Below, one piece after another: positions 15,406 through 61,666 of a stretch of DNA of 64,000 nt (positions are counted from its first letter, which is position 1; every line of letters starts with the position of its first letter). Made by a program: the position numbers and the translations under genes. This DNA is from an uncultured delta proteobacterium (GTDB taxonomy: Bacteria; Desulfobacterota; RBG-13-43-22): positions 43,444 to 107,443 of the forward strand of contig CAWDKY010000032.1 of assembly GCA_963802945.1 (NCBI GenBank), in the 5' to 3' direction. The notes below the pieces were generated by a model that saw only the letters and a program-made list of their open reading frames with translations, was not told the origin of the DNA and did not search any database.

Positions 15406-16707
15406 TCAGCTTTCTACTTCTTCTCGTATGGGCACCCAGAACATTAGCAGCATGGCCGGGATTGAGGCGCCAAATGCAATGAGAAACATGTTCAGATACC
15501 CCATATGCTCCACAATAACCCCGCCGAATCCTCCGAAAAAGGTGGAAAAAATAGACATGACCGCCGAGCCTACGGCATAGTGTGAGGCCTTGAATTCCGG
15601 TTTACAGGTGCGCAGAATATAGACGATCAACACGGCGTTACCCAGCCCGGCCGCCATTTGTTCGTAACAATGCACTGCGGCAATGACGGCCAAACCGAAA
15701 TGCGTGGCCGCTGAAGGAAGGGACCAGGCCAGCCAGACATAAGCCCAGATATTGAAGTTCATGAGGATGGTCAAAGGCCAGATGGCTTTTTTCAACCCTT
15801 TCTTCTTGATCCATATCCCACCAATGGACGTTCCGGCAATAGCCCCCAGCGCACCCAAAATCCCGCCAAGCCAGGAAAGCTGGGCCTTGGTCACGCCCAA
15901 CTCTCGCATAAGAAACGGCGTGCCCATGGAAAATAGGATCTCATCCCCGATTTTATAGGTAATGATGAAGATAATAACCAGGGCCACTTTCTCCTGTTCA
16001 AAGTAGGTGCTGAAGGCGCGGCCGAAATCTCGTGTAATCCCGGAAAACGATCGCACCGCCTGAGGACGATCTTTCTCGAATCGGGGAAGCTGCCAGGTAT
16101 GAAAAAGCGTGACCAGGAGCATAGTAACGGCAGCCGCCCCGAAGGCATAACCCCAGGGCCGGTATTTATCAGCCCCGCCGAGTCTGGCAGCAGCAAAGGC
16201 CGCCAAAGCCACAAATCCACTGCGGACCAGGATAACCGCCAATCTGTAAGCAAAAACGCGGTATCCGGTATAGGCGGCCTGTTCCTTGGGGTCGGTCAGG
16301 CCTTCCATATAGTATCCGTCAATGGCGATGTCGTTGGTCGCCGAGAGGAAGGCCAGAACAATAAAGGTCCCCGCAATGATGGCCAGGATCAAGCCGGCAT
16401 CGGTTTGATGCGTGGCGATAAAACAGCAGTATGAAACCCCGATGATCAGCAGACTGATGCCGGCCTGCACCGCGATCATCCAGGTCCGTTTCTTTCCAAT
16501 GATGTCCAAAAAGGGGGCCCAGAGGAATTTCAGATTCCAGGGTATGCCGAGAAAATTCAAATAACCGATGTAACGTTCCTTCAATCCGATATCGGTAAAG
16601 AAGACCGACGAAAGTATCCGAATGATCGCATAGGGCAGGCCTTCGGCCAGGTAGGTGCTGAAAACCCAGACACCGGGTTTATTTACAGGTTGTTGAAAAC
16701 GGCCCAT
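15406..16707 (-). CDS. MFS transporter, AmpG/PAT family
   Basis: 12-helix profile with an LKFLWAPFLD motif. The only usable start codon (16707) lies inside repeat element A. Confidence 0.8.
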   Translation of the reverse strand: MGRFQQPVNKPGVWVFSTYLAEGLPYAIIRILSSVFFTDIGLKERYIGYLNFLGIPWNLKFLWAPFLDIIGKKRTWMIAVQAGISLLIIGVSYCCFIATHQTDAGLILAIIAGTFIVLAFLSATNDIAIDGYYMEGLTDPKEQAAYTGYRVFAYRLAVILVRSGFVALAAFAAARLGGADKYRPWGYAFGAAAVTMLLVTLFHTWQLPRFEKDRPQAVRSFSGITRDFGRAFSTYFEQEKVALVIIFIITYKIGDEILFSMGTPFLMRELGVTKAQLSWLGGILGALGAIAGTSIGGIWIKKKGLKKAIWPLTILMNFNIWAYVWLAWSLPSAATHFGLAVIAAVHCYEQMAAGLGNAVLIVYILRTCKPEFKASHYAVGSAVMSIFSTFFGGFGGVIVEHMGYLNMFLIAFGASIPAMLLMFWVPIREEVES

Positions 16708-16865
16708 CTACTTTGTTGCCCTCATCCCTCGTTATTGCGGCGTACTATTATGTACGCCTCATTCCTCTGGATTTCTTCGCGTAAAAGACAACGCTCAGTC
16801 CCACCCCTTCGAGACGGGTTCCGGGTTTCGGGTGCCTCGTATCTGGACCTTTTTGAGCAACCCGT
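16685..16865 (-). repeat. structured MITE-like intergenic element, copy A (181 nt)
   Basis: The terminal inverted repeats ACAGGTTGTTGAAAACGGCCCA (16685-16706) and TGGACCTTTTTGAGCAACCCGT (ends 16865) match at 17 of 22 positions. There is an internal GGCGTAC...GTACGCC hairpin. The element is homologous to 43170-43294. Confidence 0.7.
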
Positions 16866-16897
16866 GAAAAACGAGATTTTCCGAAATCTGTTAAGAT

Positions 16898-20582: not shown

Positions 20583-20636
20583 GAAGAATTTCTGTTTTGA
20601 TGGAAAAACTTTAAACTTAGAAAAAGGCGGGGTCAA
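20583..20636 (-). promoter_or_regulatory. promoter-leader cassette copy: TTGACC-N17-TAAAGT plus TTCCATCAAAACAGAAATTCTTC leader
   Basis: ggtcaa at 20631-20636 and acttta at 20608-20613, with a 17-nt spacer. The leader is homologous to those at 23632, 39150, 39228 and 45861. Confidence 0.55.
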
Positions 20637-20663
20637 GGAGAAAATAGGAAGATGAATCCTAGA

Positions 20664-21634: not shown

Positions 21635-21663
21635 AGTATAGGATAAGAAAAAAACCGGGTCAA
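21635..21663 (-). promoter_or_regulatory. sigma70-like promoter TTGACC-N17-TATACT for the 151-aa HTH gene
   Basis: ggtcaa at 21658-21663 and agtata at 21635-21640, with a 17-nt spacer. Confidence 0.55.
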
Positions 21664-22036
21664 GGAGAAAGACAGGGATAGAGGATATCTCGGTAGAAAA
21701 TGAAAAAGCTTTCCCCAAAAATTAAAAATTACGAAAGAAACCCCCAAATTTCCCCAAACATGGTCTCTCCTGACCGAACTCAGCGAGTACACCTCCTAAT
21801 GGTTGACATTAGCATGTATTTGAATTAGCGATTACGGGTTGAAATAGACAATCCGATTCATTGGACCTTGGAGCGGACTAAAGAATAAATTTCTCAAAGG
21901 GGTCTTCGATCATAGAGAAAATATCTCCACAGAATTTTGGGAATATCGAATACGAAAGGCCTATGAGGGATCTCGGGCAACTGATCTATCTATCAACGTA
22001 TTGGAAAAAGAGTGGCCCCGGAAATTTCCAGCACCT

Positions 22037-23501: not shown

Positions 23502-23631
23502 GGTCGGTTTCTTTCAATAATAGTGACCTTTTCCGTCTAAACGTATTTTTTTATACTAAAATAGATACAACGCAAAGCAAAATTCTGTTACAATAATTAC
23601 TCATTATTTTATTAATAATCTCAATTAATTT

Positions 23632-23686
23632 ATAAGAAGTTGCTTTTTGATGGGAAGAGTATAAGGAAAGAAGAAGACACGGTCAA
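23632..23686 (-). promoter_or_regulatory. promoter-leader cassette: TTGACC-N17-TATACT plus CCCATCAAAAAGCAACTTCTTAT
   Basis: ggtcaa at 23681-23686 and agtata at 23658-23663. The leader at 23632-23657 contains the inverted repeat AAGAAG-TTG-CTTTTT. Confidence 0.6.
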
Positions 23687-23825
23687 GGATAAAAATAGGG
23701 CGGAAGGCAAGGGGACAAGGGGGGACTTTAAAGAAAATGGGACTATACAGGTCTGGACTGTACAGATAAAAGTCGATAATAGGAAAAGGAAATCCGGCTC
23801 CCAATTTCTTACAGATTTTTCCCTT

Positions 23826-39149: not shown

Positions 39150-39205
39150 ATAAGAACTTGCTTTTTATGGGAGGAAGTATAAGTTGAAAAAAAAGTCGAA
39201 GTCAA
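39150..39205 (-). promoter_or_regulatory. promoter-leader cassette copy (TTGACT-N18-TATACT plus CCTCCCATAAAAAGCAAGTTCTTATC)
   Basis: agtcaa at 39200-39205 and agtata at 39176-39181. This is the copy nearest upstream of the ACP gene. Confidence 0.55.
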
Positions 39206-39227
39206 GGAGAAAATCAGGTCAAAATTT

Positions 39228-39283
39228 GATAAGAAGTTGCTTTTTGATGGGTAAAGTATAAGACAAAGAAAAGTTTAGATCAA
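39228..39283 (-). promoter_or_regulatory. promoter-leader cassette copy (TTGATC-N17-TATACT plus ACCCATCAAAAAGCAACTTCTTATC)
   Basis: gatcaa at 39278-39283 and agtata at 39255-39260. Homology to 23632-23795 continues to about 39394, where the IS30 element begins. Confidence 0.55.
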
Positions 39284-39394
39284 GAAGAAAAATAGGGCGG
39301 AAGGTAAGATGACAAAGGGGGACGTTTGAAGAAAAAAGGGACTTTGCCAGTTGGGATTATACCAAGAGTGAGAAATAAGGGGGAAAGAAGGCCT

Positions 39395-40505
39395 GGCAGA
39401 TTCTACTTGCAAGTGCGCCACATTAGATAACCGCAGGACATGATGGGATTTTCTGGTAGTGTGTGAAGCACGACCAACACGCACCCCAGAAAGGGACCCA
39501 TCATGCCCTATACCCATCTTACAGAAAAAGATCGATATGTCATCAGCCATTTGAAGGTGGCCGGTTTTTCGCTACGGGAGATTGGACGTCGTCTCGGGCG
39601 AGACCATGCCACCATTAGTCGGGAGATCAAACGTAACGGCCCAACCTATCCTGAAGGAATATACTGGTACGATTTCACACAACCCCGGGCCATTGAGCGG
39701 CGTCATAAAGCCCGGCATTATCGCCGGCATGATCACCGTACGCTGGTTGAATATGTTGAAGCTAAAATCCGTATCGAATGGCCTCCGGAAGTTATTGCTG
39801 CTCACCTAAAGCTTGATCACCCAAACGATAAAACCATGCGTATCTGCCAGGAAACTATTTATCGGTGGATATTTCAAGATGCTCAACAAGGTGGCGATCT
39901 CTACTGCTATCAGAGACGCCGTCACAAAAAACGCCGCAAACAAAGACGCTATGGCTCGGGAAGACGTTTTATCCCTGGGCGTGTTTCCATTGATCAACGT
40001 CCATCCCTGGTTGATTTACGCCAACGGTTTGGGGACTGGGAAGGGGACACGCTGGAAGGTGGAAAAGGAAAAGGGGGCCTGGCCACTCATGTCGAGCGTA
40101 AAGGCCGTTATCTATTGGCAGCCAAGCTCTCGGACAAGACCTCCAACACCATGACTCAGCAAAGCATTAAATCCTTTCGGAAAGCTCCCCGGACCCTACG
40201 CCATACCCTCACCGTTGATAATGGTAAAGAATTTTCTAATTTCAAAGAGCTCGAAAATAAAACCGGGTTAAAAGTCTATTTCGCAGACCCCTATGCAGCT
40301 TGGCAGCGGGGAATCAATGAAAATACAAATGGTCTGTTAAGACAATATTTCCCAAAAGGAACTGATTTCCAAAAGATATCGGAAAAAGAGATTGCTTTTG
40401 TCGTTAAAAAACTAAATAATCGCCCCAGAAAATGTCTCCACTACCAGACCCCTCATGCGGTCTTCTGTCAGGCTCTTAGTGGTGCACTTTGAAGTAGAAT
40501 CTGCC
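39395..40505 (+). mobile_element. IS30-family insertion sequence (1111 bp) with imperfect terminal inverted repeats
   Basis: IRL GGCAGATTCTACTTGCAAGTGC (39395-39416) matches the reverse complement of IRR at 40484-40505 (GGCAGATTCTACTTCAAAGTGC) at 20 of 22 positions. The element encloses the transposase ORF. No clear target duplication was seen. Confidence 0.9.
39503..40492 (+). CDS. IS30 family transposase
   Basis: N-terminal HTH ([21 protein letters not shown]) and DDE region ([28 protein letters not shown]). The 329-aa ORF is intact. Confidence 0.95.
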
Positions 40506-41633: not shown

Positions 41634-43154
41634 TTATTTTCCGAGCTTATCCTTAAGCTCCCTTTTCAGTATTTTACCGGCACTATTGCGGGGGAATTCT
41701 TTTACAAAAACGACCTTTTTGGGAATCTTAAAGTAGGCAATTTTTTCTTGGAGGACTTCGAGCAGTACTTCTTCGGTCATCGTAGCGCCCTTGTTCAGCA
41801 AAACAAAGGCCGCCACCACTTCGCCCCGCTTGGAATCGGGCATCCCGACCGCTGCGGCCTCCGACACTTGAGGAATCGATTCGATGGCGCGCTCCACTTC
41901 GGCGGCATAGATATTCTCTCCCGAACTGATAATCATATCGATCTTTCGGCCGACAATATAAAGAAACCCCTCACGATCCTGTTTCCCTAGATCGCCAGTG
42001 TAAAACCATCCATCGCGGAAAGACGCCTGCGTCTCTTGCTCCTTATTCCAGTATCTTAAAAAAACGGTGGGGCCCTTTACCACAACCTCACCAACTTCGC
42101 CCGGCGGCACATCCTGGCCGCTTTCATCCACGATTCGCAAGTGGGTGTGGAATACCTCTTTGCCGACCGACCCGGCTTTGCGGATAGTGTCTTCGAGATC
42201 CAGGGAGGTCAGTCGCAAAGTTTCGGTCATGGCATACCCCTGCGTGAACCGGACTCCCTTTTCCTCCTGATACTTGCGGATCAGGTCAACGGACATGGAA
42301 GCCCCGCCGGCAATGAAGAAATAGACGTGGGAAAAATCAGCTCTTTCCCAGGCGTCGGTTTTGGCCATCATTTCAAACATCACCGGTACCGCAAACATGT
42401 AGTTGATTTTTTCAGCGCAGATAAGCTCAACAACTTCCGAAGGGTTGTCGAAACTTTTAAGAACCAGCGAGCCTCCGGCATAAATAGCCGGCGTGGCCGA
42501 GGCGGCCAGGGCCCCGATGTGGAAAAGGGGAGCTACTACAAGGGATTTGCAGTTGGAGCTGATGCCGTAGCCGATCAGGGAATGGATGGCCCCAAAAAGA
42601 AAGTTTTCATGCGAAAGCACGGCCCCTTTGGGATCGCCGGTCGTCCCGGATGTATACATGATGACTAAGGGATCTTTCAGGGTCAATTCCTCCGCGGGAA
42701 TCGGTTCTTCTTCCGGAAATGAGGCTGTAAAATTCGCAAGAGAAGCATCGCTGGAAAATCGGTCGCCGCCATGCTGGAGATAATGCTCAACCGCTGGGGA
42801 TGCAGCTTTAAGCCCCTCGGCCTTGTCTACAAGTTCAGCAGAATAGATCAGGGCCCGGGGAGCGGCATCTTTAATGATATAACCCATTTCCGGCAGCGCC
42901 AGTTTTAAATTAATGGGGACGATCATCGCACCGGTTTTGGCGCAGGCAAAAAAGACTTCCAGAAATTCGCTGGAGTTGACCATCAGGGTTGCCACCCGTT
43001 CACCCTTTTTGACGTCGAGCGCTGCCAGCGCATGGGCGGTTTGGTTCACCCGCGCATTGAACTGGCGGTTGGTGAATGCCCGGTCTTCCTGTTTTAGAAA
43101 AGGCCGCTGCGGATAAGTCAGCGCGCGCTTGTAAATCCACTCCCCAATGTTCAT
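41634..43154 (-). CDS. AMP-dependent acyl-CoA/acyl-ACP ligase (FadD-like)
   Basis: YTSGTTGDPKGAVLSH, GWFYTGDLGKQDREGFLYIVGRKID and C-terminal NSAGKILKREL motifs. AAGGAG lies 8 nt upstream of ATG 43154. Confidence 0.9.
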   Translation of the reverse strand: MNIGEWIYKRALTYPQRPFLKQEDRAFTNRQFNARVNQTAHALAALDVKKGERVATLMVNSSEFLEVFFACAKTGAMIVPINLKLALPEMGYIIKDAAPRALIYSAELVDKAEGLKAASPAVEHYLQHGGDRFSSDASLANFTASFPEEEPIPAEELTLKDPLVIMYTSGTTGDPKGAVLSHENFLFGAIHSLIGYGISSNCKSLVVAPLFHIGALAASATPAIYAGGSLVLKSFDNPSEVVELICAEKINYMFAVPVMFEMMAKTDAWERADFSHVYFFIAGGASMSVDLIRKYQEEKGVRFTQGYAMTETLRLTSLDLEDTIRKAGSVGKEVFHTHLRIVDESGQDVPPGEVGEVVVKGPTVFLRYWNKEQETQASFRDGWFYTGDLGKQDREGFLYIVGRKIDMIISSGENIYAAEVERAIESIPQVSEAAAVGMPDSKRGEVVAAFVLLNKGATMTEEVLLEVLQEKIAYFKIPKKVVFVKEFPRNSAGKILKRELKDKLGK

Positions 43155-43169
43155 CGAGATTACTCCTTA

Positions 43170-43294
43170 ACAGGTTGCTGAAAAAGGCCCATCTACTGTG
43201 TTGCCCTCATCCCTCGTCATTGCGGCGTACCTCTGTGTACGCCTCACAGTCTCGGAATTTCGGCGCCTTGTATCTGGACCTTTTCGAGCAACCT
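43170..43294 (-). repeat. structured MITE-like intergenic element, copy B (125 nt)
   Basis: Terminal inverted repeats ACAGGTTGCTGAAAAAGGCCCA and TGGACCTTTTCGAGCAACCT, plus an internal GGCGTAC-N6-GTACGCC hairpin. Relative to copy A it lacks about 55 nt. Confidence 0.7.
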
Positions 43295-43322
43295 TTAAAA
43301 TAAATTGGTAATACGCAAATTG

Positions 43323-44546
43323 TTAAGTAATATTTTTCAGCACCAGCGAAACAAAGGTCCCCCCGGATGAAAACCCGTTTATCAGACCGAAATTAATTGG
43401 AAGGTCTATCTTTTTTTCCATGACAAACCGCAGCGGACGGATCGGATTTTTAAGACCGACCGTGGGGGGAATGCTTCCCGCCTTTATCGATAAGGCCATG
43501 GCCGCCGTCCTTATCCCCCCGGATGAGAAGCTCTCACCCACAGCCCCTTTAATGGCGCTGATATAGGGTCGATCAGTAGCGCTTCCAAATACGATAGACA
43601 GCGCCTCGGCCTCAAGGGCGTCCAGTCTGCTGCCGCCGCTGGCGGCGGCCGAGACATAATCGATTGCGCCGGGGGCGATCCCGGCCGAATTCAGCGCCCG
43701 GGTGATCGCCAGGACCGACCCCCGGGGATCTGAAGGCCAGTCGGTGGGCGGGGCCGGCGCTGAGCTCAGGCCCCATCCGACAATTTCACAATAGGGTCTG
43801 TGCCCGCGGGCCTCGGCCTGCGAGAAGGTCTCAAGGCATACCATCCCCGCCCCCTCGCCGACTACCGGTCCGTTTCGACGGATGTCAAAGGGACGTGCTC
43901 CCTCCGGCCCGCCGCCTAACGGGGAAAGGGCCTTAAAATGGGTCAGCACTCTAAAAAAGAATTCTGAAATAATATCTACGCCACCGGCAAACATAAAATC
44001 GGCCCGGCCTTGTTTAATCTCAGAAGCGGCGTAGACGATGGCCGTCTCGGCCGAGGCCTCACGGTGATTGATGGTTGAGTTGATCCCCCTGAAGCCAAGC
44101 TCGATGGAAGTATGGCCGGCCGGCGCGTTCATCACCGTATTCGGCACCTGAAAGGGACCGACCATCCCCGGGCCTTGGCTGAGAAGCACTCCGGCAAACT
44201 GGGCGGCAACGTCGGTGCTGCCGACGGCGGTCCCCAGGATAATCCCCGTCCGATCCCGGTTGGAGACGTCTATGCTGACCCCGGCATCCTCCAGGGCCAT
44301 CCTGGCTGAAGCGCAGGCCAGAGAGGATGTCCGGTCCATCTTGCGAAGGTTTTTCACGGAGATGAACGCTCTGGGGCTAAAGTCCGTTACAGCCGCTCCC
44401 AGTTTGGAAGCAAAATGGGACGTATCAAAATGCGTAATCGGGGAGATGCCGCAGTCTCCCCGGAAAAGTTTCTGCAAGAAATCATCCTTTCCAACCCCTA
44501 AGGGAGTGACCAGGCCGACCCCGGATATGACCACACGGTTACTCAT
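43323..44546 (-). CDS. beta-ketoacyl synthase-like protein lacking the Cys-His-His triad (chain-length-factor-like partner)
   Basis: Aligned to the adjacent KS, TACSSGATAI becomes HREASAETAI, AHGTAT becomes AAASGG, and TGHTLGAAG becomes VGESFSSGG. ATG 44546 overlaps the upstream stop by 8 nt. Confidence 0.85.
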   Translation of the reverse strand: MSNRVVISGVGLVTPLGVGKDDFLQKLFRGDCGISPITHFDTSHFASKLGAAVTDFSPRAFISVKNLRKMDRTSSLACASARMALEDAGVSIDVSNRDRTGIILGTAVGSTDVAAQFAGVLLSQGPGMVGPFQVPNTVMNAPAGHTSIELGFRGINSTINHREASAETAIVYAASEIKQGRADFMFAGGVDIISEFFFRVLTHFKALSPLGGGPEGARPFDIRRNGPVVGEGAGMVCLETFSQAEARGHRPYCEIVGWGLSSAPAPPTDWPSDPRGSVLAITRALNSAGIAPGAIDYVSAAASGGSRLDALEAEALSIVFGSATDRPYISAIKGAVGESFSSGGIRTAAMALSIKAGSIPPTVGLKNPIRPLRFVMEKKIDLPINFGLINGFSSGGTFVSLVLKNIT

Positions 44547-45786
44547 GGGCAATCCCTCTCGGGGTATAACTTCCCAAAACGATGGCGGTGTTGTTTCCGC
44601 CGAAGGCAAAAGAATTGGAAAGAACGATATTCACCTCCGCCTCCCGGCAGCCTTCGGTAACATAGTCCAGATCACATTCGGGGTCGGGTTCGGTCAGGTG
44701 AATCGTCGGCGGAATAAAATGCTGAAAAATAGCCAGAACGCAAGCCACTGCTTCGATGGCGCCGGCCGCGCCCAAGGTGTGGCCCGTCATGGATTTTGTG
44801 GAACTCACCGGGAGGTGATAGGCCCGTTGGCCGAAAACCGCCTTGATCGCCTTGGTTTCTACAGGATCGTTGGCCGGGGTGGCCGTGCCATGGGCGTTGA
44901 TATAGTCCACCTGCTCAGGGGCTAGGCCGCTGTCCTGCAAGGCGGCTTCTATACAGCGCACCGCCCCCGAAGCCTCAGGGTCCGGAGCGGTCATATGGTA
45001 GCTGTCGCAACTCACCCCGTATCCGAGGACCTCCCCGTAGATGCGCGCTCCCCGCTTTTGCGCCTGGCTCAAGGCCTCCAGGATCATGATGCCGGCCCCT
45101 TCGCCGAGAGAAAGCCCCTGCCGGTTTTTGTCGAAAGGCTTGCAATATTCCGGGTCCACCGCCTGCAGCGCGTTAAAAGCGCCGTAAGTAATCCGGCAAA
45201 GGGGTTCGGTGCCTCCGGCGATAACCACGGTTGCCGTCCCCTCCCGGATCAGATCCCTGGCATACCCGATGGCCGTGGCGCCGGATGAACAGGCGGTCAT
45301 GAATGTGGTTTTGGGTCCCATCAGCCCTAAGTTTGAGGCGATCTGGTCCGCGGAAGAGGCGCAGCAAAAGGCCGAAAAAGGCGAATAGCGGACGCCTTTA
45401 CCGCTGCCCTGGAGATATTGGCGATAGGCCTCCTCGCCTTCCAGCATGCCGCCGGCCCCGCCGCCGATAACAACGCCGGTATCGGCCTGCAGGACTTCCG
45501 GAAAAGGAAAAAGTCCCGCATCGCTCAAGGCCTCCAGCGCAGCCGCCATGGCCATGCGGTCCGAACGAGACATCCGCTTTAATGAGAATTCCGGCGGGAT
45601 CATCTCGCGTGGGGCAAAATTTTTCACTTCCCCGCCGGTATGGGTTCTGAAGTCGGTCGTATCAAAGACCGTGACCGGTCCGATGCCGCATACCCCTTGC
45701 CTTAGAGCTGCGCTGAATTTAGACGCACTCCCGGCAATGGCATTGATGGTTCCCAGTCCGGTGATGACGACTCTTTCTTTTTCCAT
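44539..45786 (-). CDS. beta-ketoacyl-ACP synthase (KAS I/II-type, catalytic triad intact)
   Basis: Active-site TACSSGATAIGYA, HGTATPANDPVE, GHTLGAAG and SNSFAFGGNN motifs. Confidence 0.9.
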   Translation of the reverse strand: MEKERVVITGLGTINAIAGSASKFSAALRQGVCGIGPVTVFDTTDFRTHTGGEVKNFAPREMIPPEFSLKRMSRSDRMAMAAALEALSDAGLFPFPEVLQADTGVVIGGGAGGMLEGEEAYRQYLQGSGKGVRYSPFSAFCCASSADQIASNLGLMGPKTTFMTACSSGATAIGYARDLIREGTATVVIAGGTEPLCRITYGAFNALQAVDPEYCKPFDKNRQGLSLGEGAGIMILEALSQAQKRGARIYGEVLGYGVSCDSYHMTAPDPEASGAVRCIEAALQDSGLAPEQVDYINAHGTATPANDPVETKAIKAVFGQRAYHLPVSSTKSMTGHTLGAAGAIEAVACVLAIFQHFIPPTIHLTEPDPECDLDYVTEGCREAEVNIVLSNSFAFGGNNTAIVLGSYTPRGIAHE

Positions 45787-45860: not shown

Positions 45861-45914
45861 CTAGGAACTTGCTTTTTGAGAGGAGACTATAAACCAAGGG
45901 AAAAACGGGGTCAA
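45861..45914 (-). promoter_or_regulatory. promoter-leader cassette copy (TTGACC-N17-TATAGT plus CTCCTCTCAAAAAGCAAGTTCCTAG)
   Basis: ggtcaa at 45909-45914 and actata at 45886-45891, about 100 nt upstream of the KS start. Confidence 0.55.
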
Positions 45915-45988
45915 GGAGAAAAGGGTTATAAAGCAAGAACCCAGTATGACAATTTTAACCAAAGAAGAGAAGTAACAGAAGATCAACC

Positions 45989-61507: not shown

Positions 61508-61666
61508 GACGGCACAGTAAAAAGCTCCGGATACAAGGCGCACAAATCCTGAGGAATGAGGCATACAAAGAAGTACGCCGCAATAAGCTTGCCCCGCTGA
61601 AAAGCGGGGAAGGGTGCAGAGCAATCCCGCGAAACGCGGGACTGATGGACTTTTTACGAGGCCGTC
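61508..61666 (+). repeat. structured MITE-like intergenic element, copy C (159 nt, opposite genomic orientation to A and B)
   Basis: Terminal inverted repeats GACGGCACAGTAAAAAGCTCC (61508-61528) and GGACTTTTTACGAGGCCGTC (61647-61666). Internal hairpins are CCCCGC-N6-GCGGGG and TCCCGCG-AAA-CGCGGGA. The core TATTGCGGCGTAC is shared (as reverse complement) with A and B. An extra half-site lies at 61485-61502. Confidence 0.65.

Follow-up and report, generated by a model that had tools for sequence, protein, structure and literature searches.

The window analysed here is a 64,000-nt stretch (C32:43444-107443) of a 4.37-Mb genome assembled in 72 contigs. On its minus strand, a gene with a ketoacyl-synthase fold (KS-like) is followed by an intact AMP-dependent acyl ligase gene, and the operon spacer between them holds a repeat element, B, which a first-pass annotation had assigned to the same family as a second copy, A. 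Both the location and the kinship held, and all letters and coordinates quoted in that annotation match the sequence; an 18-mer from the element's arm occurs four times in the window when ≤3 mismatches are allowed, where 0.11 occurrences would be expected. A 10-codon open reading frame (mini-ORF; ATG GGC CTT TTT CAG CAA CCT GTT AAG GAG TAA) does run on the minus strand from 43192 down to 43160, and its stop lies 5 nt ahead of the ligase ATG (43154), whose Shine-Dalgarno (SD) sequence is AAGGAG at 43168-43163. The right limit given for B (43294) was wrong. When copies were aligned with their flanks, the family reached approximately 30 nt past this boundary, and B proved to be an element of 152 nt (43171-43322) with a second, outer terminal repeat, bounded on both sides by TTAA (43167-43170 and 43323-43326). 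What had been overlooked is a transposon insertion, with a target duplication that also holds the stop codon of the upstream gene. The features are as follows.

16682-16894 (C32:60125-60337), plus strand: copy A, 213 nt including duplications, with an extra internal module.
41634-43154, minus strand: AMP-dependent acyl ligase gene (Pfam AMP-binding), downstream of B and intact.
43160-43192, minus strand: 10-codon ORF; codons 1-8 and most of codon 9 lie within the element or the duplicated TTAA, while codon 10 (GAG) and the TAA are ancestral flank.
43167-43170, no strand: left TTAA of the target-site duplication, whose minus-strand sequence includes the first two bases of the ligase SD.
43171-43196, minus strand: 3' arm of the long hairpin and 'left' terminal inverted repeat (CAGGTTGCTGAAAAAGGCCCATCTAC on the plus strand), within which the mini-ORF ATG lies.
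43224-43243, no strand: central conserved hairpin GGCGTAC-N6-GTACGCC, kept in all subfamilies and in copies from other phyla.
43270-43295, minus strand: 5' arm of the long hairpin in the mRNA sense, which is the inner terminal repeat AAGGTTGCTCGAAAAGGTCCAGATAC.
43296-43322, minus strand: outer terminal repeat and spacer of the 'right' end (CAATTTGCGTATTACCAATTTATTTTA in B, CAGGATGCGGAAAAACTCATTTTTA in the family consensus).
43323-43326, no strand: right copy of the target-site duplication, TTAA, 4 bp; its last three bases on the minus strand are the TAA stop of the KS-like gene (43323-43325).
43323-44609, minus strand: KS-like gene (Pfam ketoacyl-synt N and C domains), upstream of B.

Transposition into the KS-like/ligase junction

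We compared the junction among genus-mates by aligning it through orthologous ligase genes (88-92% amino-acid identity). Three relatives (G004, G006 and G011) have an empty site, consisting of a single (T/C)TAA within a 12-nt spacer; the junction in G004/G011/G006 reads ...ATTAAT/ACC TAA GGAG/GGAT TAATCTC(G/A) ATG, that is, ...(T/C)TAAGGAGTAATCTC(G/A)ATG. The present genome (G000) and one relative (G008) are filled at exactly the tetranucleotide that is single in the empty relatives. Their copies have several derived letters in common (CAATTTGCGTA at the right end, AAAGG for ACAGG, and the loop ACACAGAGGT), which points to one insertion in a common ancestor. In a further relative (G005), a repeat complex of >400 nt (L045:1100-1500), made up of a sister subfamily and nested hairpins, lies directly upstream of the same ligase AAGGAG. 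The junction was therefore hit more than once, by different although related repeats, making it a recurrent landing site. One metatranscriptome contig (run X27, from a relative) passes from ligase positions 42998-43169 straight into KS-like positions 43329-43374, omitting 159 nt, which shows the empty junction in RNA, and hence co-transcription, albeit in a type of library that can contain DNA. The empty site, the termini, the target duplication and membership of a dispersed family together show that B was inserted by transposition at the stop/SD junction.

The repeat family and its IS5-type relatives

Iterated nhmmer searches of the whole genome recovered about 92 family loci, 49 of them complete (157-254 nt including duplications; refined model of 158 positions). 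Most loci score on both strands because the element is a nearly complete palindrome. The consensus ends read TTAA-CAGGTTGCTGAAAAAGG...CCGCATCCTG-TTAA, or, over a longer stretch, TTAA-CAGGTTGCTGAAAAAGGCCCATCT ... GGACCTTTTTGAGCAACCTG TAAAAATGAGTTTTTCCGCATCCTG-TTAA, so that the right end has two tandem terminal repeats. As terminal inverted repeats, CAGGTTGCTGAAAAAGG pairs with CCTTTTTGAGCAACCTG, and the outer repeat ends in ...GCATCCTG. Across 100 distinct copies from this genome and relatives, TTAA flanks the left end of the element in 59 and the right end in 52, and the two flanking tetranucleotides are identical in 45, including several CTAA/CTAA pairs, indicating a 4-bp target-site duplication. 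With 152 nt and no transposase gene, B is of the size expected of a MITE, and the family has terminal inverted repeats, a duplication of fixed length, many dispersed copies, empty orthologous sites and insertion sequences (IS) with matching termini. Every genus-mate searched carries it.

About a dozen copies in the genome resemble copy C (window 61519-61656, minus strand), whose similarity to A and B is confined to the central core (TTATTGCGGCGTAC..GTATGCCTCATTCCTC), while its termini differ (...CGTAAAAAGTCCATCAG / ...GACTTTTTACGAATCCATCATCCTTTAA); these form a sister subfamily whose ends are presumably served by another transposase. The window also contains a 37-nt direct repeat ending in GGTCAAGGAGAAAA, with five copies (20608-20644, 21635-21671, 23658-23694, 39177-39213 and 45886-45922). 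The copies at 23658 and 39177 adjoin a second repeat pair of ~100 nt (23629-23729 and 39226-39326), and one copy lies ~290 nt upstream of an IS30-like transposase gene (39503-40492).

An exact scan for the 20-base left end CAGGTTGCTGAAAAAGGCCC, with one genome per species, returned at least 98 matches. Among the matches listed, besides relatives, were NC10 (Methylomirabilota), Rokubacteria, Eremiobacterota, Acidobacteriota, Nitrospira and Myxococcota MAGs and others; full-length homologous copies occur in Desulfobacterota, Methylomirabilota (NC10), Rokubacteria and an Eremiobacterota (Baltobacteraceae) MAG, while for the Acidobacteriota, Nitrospira and Myxococcota MAGs among these matches it is the terminal 20-mer that was found. 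Copies from NC10, Rokubacteria and Eremiobacterota have G+C-rich arms, a GCGRCGTAC-N6-GTACGCC centre, the doubled right end and CTAG or CTAA duplications, and eight NC10-type genomes had up to ~260 first-look candidates each (40 per genome were scored). The family is thus very abundant in uncultured bacteria of soil, sediment and groundwater. One contig titled as an uncultured Chloroflexia MAG (CAVYIM010000004.1, L103) carries 1.6 kb around a copy that are 99.5% identical to C16:72424 of the present genome, and on this sequence match it would be either mis-binned or from the same species.

Two complete insertion sequences link these termini to the IS5 family. In a Burkholderiales MAG (L123), a 1.34-kb element with CTAG flanks has a left inverted repeat that starts with the 20 bases of the MITE left end, identical to the first 20 nt of the left terminal repeat of B (43171-43196). 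Its 360-aa transposase has Pfam DUF772 and DDE_Tnp_1 domains and scores 256.7 bits against the NCBIfam model for the IS5 family (NF033581; cut-off 140). The second is a 1335-bp IS in L201, a Methylomirabilales MAG; its transposase shares 47% identity with that of L123, and the repeats of this IS, CAGGATGCTGAAAAACTC and CAGGCTGCGGAAAAACC, match the outer right terminus of the MITE, including positions 43296-43322 of B. The parent elements thus encode DDE transposases of the IS5 type. The target of the IS5 group is YTAR, which fits the 4-bp duplications of the family.

No cognate IS5-type transposase was found in G000 or in the genus-mates G005, G008 (20 contigs) and G013. MAGs often lose IS copies. 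Given these four genomes, we infer mobilisation within the lineage rather than see it. Pairs of facing termini 0.45-6 kb apart were considered as a possible autonomous copy in the genome, and they enclose only ordinary genes. The genome's own IS1182-like element was likewise rejected as a partner: it is 1629 bp long with a 511-aa open frame and occurs in three copies ~96% identical (C33:76734-77534, C17:15559-16359 and C30:109398-110201), and its inverted repeats (GGGTCTGTTGCCCAAA) are unrelated to the MITE termini.

Like IS5-family insertion sequences and their MITE derivatives, the family has terminal inverted repeats matching those of L123 and L201, a 4-bp duplication of TTAA, CTAA or CTAG, and small, non-coding, multicopy elements. 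It differs from them in that no cognate transposase was found in the genus (G000, G005, G008 and G013), in having two tandem terminal repeats on one end, in that the entire interior, and not the ends alone, is a covarying palindrome, in optional hairpin modules that vary even between orthologous copies, and in spanning several phyla. In Rfam 15 the sole match within the window was a tRNA, and the best hit in 43100-43400 had E = 9.9; a plasmid search gave no match for the family, and full-text searching found no publication containing its terminal sequences. As far as these searches reach, the family has no earlier description.

Folding, constraint and expression of the spacer

Pairing between the two arms of B had been proposed, and the predicted fold of the gene-strand RNA bears it out, at -62.4 kcal/mol (z = -7.2; none of 200 shuffles folding as well), compared with -47.1 kcal/mol (z = -4.9) for the opposite strand. 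The long stem does adjoin the ligase ribosome-binding site (RBS), with its 3' foot touching the SD, and the outer terminal repeat with its spacer (43296-43322) is predicted to be unpaired. The further proposal that the stems of A and B differ while remaining complementary was correct in part, as two of the four arm differences are accommodated by G-U pairs whereas the other two break pairs in A; the outer stem accordingly folds at -23.4 kcal/mol in A and -33.5 kcal/mol in B.

The suggested check for covariation across family copies gave a positive result. RNAalifold, applied to 55 canonical copies aligned in the mRNA direction of B, predicts a structure of 37 pairs, for 20 of which at least one copy has both sides changed with pairing kept; shuffles gave 7.2 such pairs and slid-partner controls 5-9, the shuffle control ignoring shared ancestry. 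For this structure, 97.1% of cells were paired, against 92.7% in shuffles (0 of 500 reached the observed value). Inner stems and copies from other phyla supply much of this covariation, which has to be read with caution at the ends, as a change in inverted terminal repeats is the same change in both and co-evolution with the transposase can yield that pattern. The sense strand pairs better than the other (146 G-U cells versus 23 A-C cells). We considered whether the G-U excess of single copies tracks the direction of transcription, and rejected this: ratios of 64:8 in B-like orientation and 29:8 in the opposite one are not clearly different, so that the excess is mainly a family-wide trait. 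Covariation across the family supports the hairpin.

Between this genome and G008, whose ligase orthologue also carries the element, the ligase has a dN/dS of 0.16 (dS = 0.25). The gene thus stayed functional and is not silenced by the insertion. Across the same pair, identity is 83.4% for B itself, compared with 85.3% at third codon positions and 96.1% at first and second positions, and two other orthologous pairs show about the same pattern (91.3% vs 84.4%, and 94.7% vs 93.3%). The outer arms of B have ~3 differences in 52 nt. There is consequently little evidence of selection on B at the sequence level, with some constraint on the stem being possible. In G008, where two additional internal G+C hairpins were gained or kept, the copy folds at -91 kcal/mol, and its predicted stem base takes in the whole AAGGAG. 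When this copy (L044:3016-3215) is set against window positions 43167-43326, the mini-hairpins CCCCGCCGAAAGGCGGGG and CCCGCCATGGCGG differ; they are optional in other copies as well. That optional mini-hairpins differ between orthologous copies indicates a modular interior that changes after insertion, and the sequences suggest that it does so either by gain and loss of modules or by conversion from other copies.

No RNA run contained this exact locus; the metatranscriptomes had relatives only, as unstranded contigs, among which family copies occur together with unique flanks. By eye, no convincing sigma-70 or sigma-54 promoter reads out of the left end, and the sole match in a promoter scan was weak and inward-reading, at the right end of B (TTAACA, 18 nt, TATTTT). 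A consensus terminator scan (loops of 3-8 nt counted) found none inside the element, which does have an inner stem followed by U5, although in the full fold this U run is itself paired.

The genome encodes RNase III, and precedents for processing exist among other mobile palindromes. Correia elements of Neisseria (CREE/NEMIS) are likewise MITEs (~100-155 bp) that insert near genes and form long hairpins when co-transcribed; RNase III cuts them at the inverted repeats, and expression of neighbouring genes can change (reviewed in PMC10969869). They differ from the present family in their TA duplication, other termini, an IHF site and confinement to Neisseria. ERIC/IRU sequences of enterobacteria are similar in being imperfect palindromes (~127 bp) within transcribed intergenic regions, and in Yersinia an ERIC insertion exposes an RNase E site within the 3' inverted repeat and so changes the levels of the transcripts that contain ERIC (PMC10969869). 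Their sequence is unrelated, however, they have no known IS partner, and their reported effects concern upstream genes (at the 3' end), whereas the bias of the present family concerns the downstream start codon. Given the processing of Correia and ERIC elements and the presence of RNase III in this genome, a modest cis effect of B on ligase expression is plausible by analogy.

Placement of copies and interpretation of the locus

The position of B relative to its neighbours recurs throughout the genus. Between co-directional genes of this genome, 30 copies have the orientation of B and seven the opposite one; with non-redundant copies of relatives included, the counts are 52 and 20 (p = 2e-4), the genes for all such context counts having been called with a simple codon-bias method. 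Element ends found ≤40 nt from a start codon are mostly left, single-repeat ends (43, against 10 right ends; p = 6e-6), while stop codons show no such asymmetry (21 vs 15). The same tendency appears in a count independent of gene calls, in which, of 100 copies, 34 have an SD-like motif beginning ≤3 nt from the left duplication and five have one that close to the right duplication. Of the occupied TTAA, 19 of 25 (76%) lie 9-20 nt before the start, compared with 12.4% of 3857 free TTAA within 150 nt upstream of starts (p = 5e-13). These counts at the left end make the arrangement of B typical of the family in this genus. An AT-rich right flank was tried as the cause of the orientation and rejected (AT 0.60 left vs 0.615 right; p = 0.31). 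NC10-type genomes show no orientation bias (11 vs 16, with 10 start-adjacent copies on the left and seven on the right), in small numbers and with a crude caller. A bias this strong is not expected from a symmetric TTAA target and hints at something beyond passive insertion; in the genus it would reflect either target choice or selection.

Taking all of this together, we consider it probable (approximately 0.82) that B is a non-autonomous IS5-family MITE that landed at the stop/SD junction, with the mini-ORF as a by-product. According to this explanation, an element of ~152 nt coding for no transposase, and derived from or mobilised by IS5-family insertion sequences, would have been inserted by a DDE transposase acting in trans into the TTAA that overlaps the TAA stop of the KS-like gene, directly before the ligase RBS, at a junction whose ancestral form would have been ACT TAA GGAG TAATCTCG ATG. 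Because the 4-bp duplication left a TTAA at each end, the KS-like gene kept its stop and the ligase its UAAGGAG. In the operon mRNA, B would fold back as an imperfect hairpin of roughly 60 pairs with the RBS at the 3' foot of its stem, which, to judge from the predicted fold, probably brings the stop codon and RBS close again. We further infer that the RNA may fold in this way in the cell and have a modest influence on the translation of the ligase or on mRNA processing; RNase III cleavage and a partly masked SD are examples of how this could come about. The mini-ORF would arise since the ATG of the terminal repeat happens to read into the flank. The spacer between the KS-like and ligase genes would accordingly represent a transposon scar rather than a designed leader.

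Several features of the element could instead reflect selection, in that the origin is mobile, as in the MITE explanation and compatible with it, while copies with the left end at an RBS were kept for a benefit as cis-acting RNA hairpins. Possible benefits include insulation of the SD, a protective 5' stem after RNase III processing, and contact between stop and SD that preserves translational coupling. The asymmetries in start-codon proximity and SD-like motifs (43 vs 10; 34 vs 5), the spacing of occupied TTAA before starts (19 of 25) and the excess of B-like orientation between co-directional genes (52 vs 20) all agree with such selection, as do the better pairing of the mRNA-sense strand (146 vs 23 cells), the few differences in the outer arms of B (~3 of 52), the presence of family copies with unique flanks in metatranscriptome contigs, and the encoded RNase III. 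Yet B as a whole diverges as fast as third codon positions, the two other orthologous pairs behave in about the same way, the G-U excess is family-wide and not clearly stronger in B-like copies, high-copy NC10-type genomes lack the bias in orientation (11 vs 16) and start adjacency (10 vs 7), and an asymmetric transposition complex, with one repeat facing two, could choose TTAAGG in one orientation without any selection. We therefore regard a selected hairpin as a tentative possibility; were the orientation bias due to selection, the family would offer a natural example of operon expression tuned by a mobile hairpin. The broader notion of a MITE that seeks RBSs, landing or being kept with one end abutting the SD as a portable module for translation or processing, appears rather unlikely, although if true it would mean that transposition spreads a ready-made element of post-transcriptional control through operon junctions.

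Other functions can be weighed against the same comparisons. The first-pass annotation had drawn attention to the mini-ORF, and a regulatory leader, in which translation of the 10 codons opens the stem and couples or gates translation of the ligase, would take advantage of an ORF that exists and ends just before the ligase ATG. About three quarters of 106 copies retain the ATG, and in ~10 copies the TGA of the frame overlaps the downstream ATG (ATGA), a frequency not far from chance (one frame in three, then an A). However, the ATG (AGATGGGCC) is conserved as part of the terminal repeat, also in the full IS, and lies inside the 3' stem arm without a good SD of its own nearby; the frame led by this ATG stops at any point between +1 and +103 nt beyond the element, or else lacks a stop or continues into the neighbouring gene; GGAGTAA, the last sense codon and stop, is already present in relatives that lack the element and so is older than the insertion; and no peptide is conserved beyond the letters of the repeat. 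With a scattered end point, no SD and an ancestral stop, leader-peptide control is very unlikely, and the mini-ORF looks like an incidental by-product of the insertion. An intrinsic, possibly bidirectional, terminator built from an A5 run, the long stem and a T5 run would agree with AAAAAGG and CCTTTTT on both arms beside a G+C-rich stem segment, and with the many copies just after stop codons, several with the stop held in the duplication. It is nevertheless improbable: the consensus scan finds none inside the element, the full fold pairs the T run with the A run, B is followed in its operon by a gene that purifying selection still maintains, and about half of the copies stand directly before start codons of co-directional genes. 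REP/BIME and REPIN sequences, moved by RAYT (Y1) transposases, resemble the family as dispersed, multicopy, extragenic palindromes in operon spacers and can stabilise upstream mRNA. They lack a target duplication, whereas the present family has 4-bp duplications, including CTAA/CTAA pairs, and 20-25-nt terminal repeats identical to those of IS5-family DDE elements, and at ~150 nt it exceeds typical REP doublets; an origin of this kind is hardly credible.

For annotation, these results imply that neither the mini-ORF nor comparable N-terminal extensions at other copies should be recorded as genes, and that the family's sites at stop codons and before RBSs will upset gene callers and operon predictions in these genomes. 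In ~15 of 106 copies the left-arm ATG opens a frame that continues for ≥40 more codons, as far as the 120-nt flank that was read. Gene callers can therefore draw predicted N-termini into the element; alternatively, the start codon may come from the element itself. One such ATG-extended case is copy A, beside an MFS transporter gene. In plus orientation, one frame of the family consensus is open throughout (TT AAC AGG TTG ... TCC TGT TAA, ~52 codons), and an element landing in the 3' end of a gene in that frame would append a tail rather than truncate the protein.
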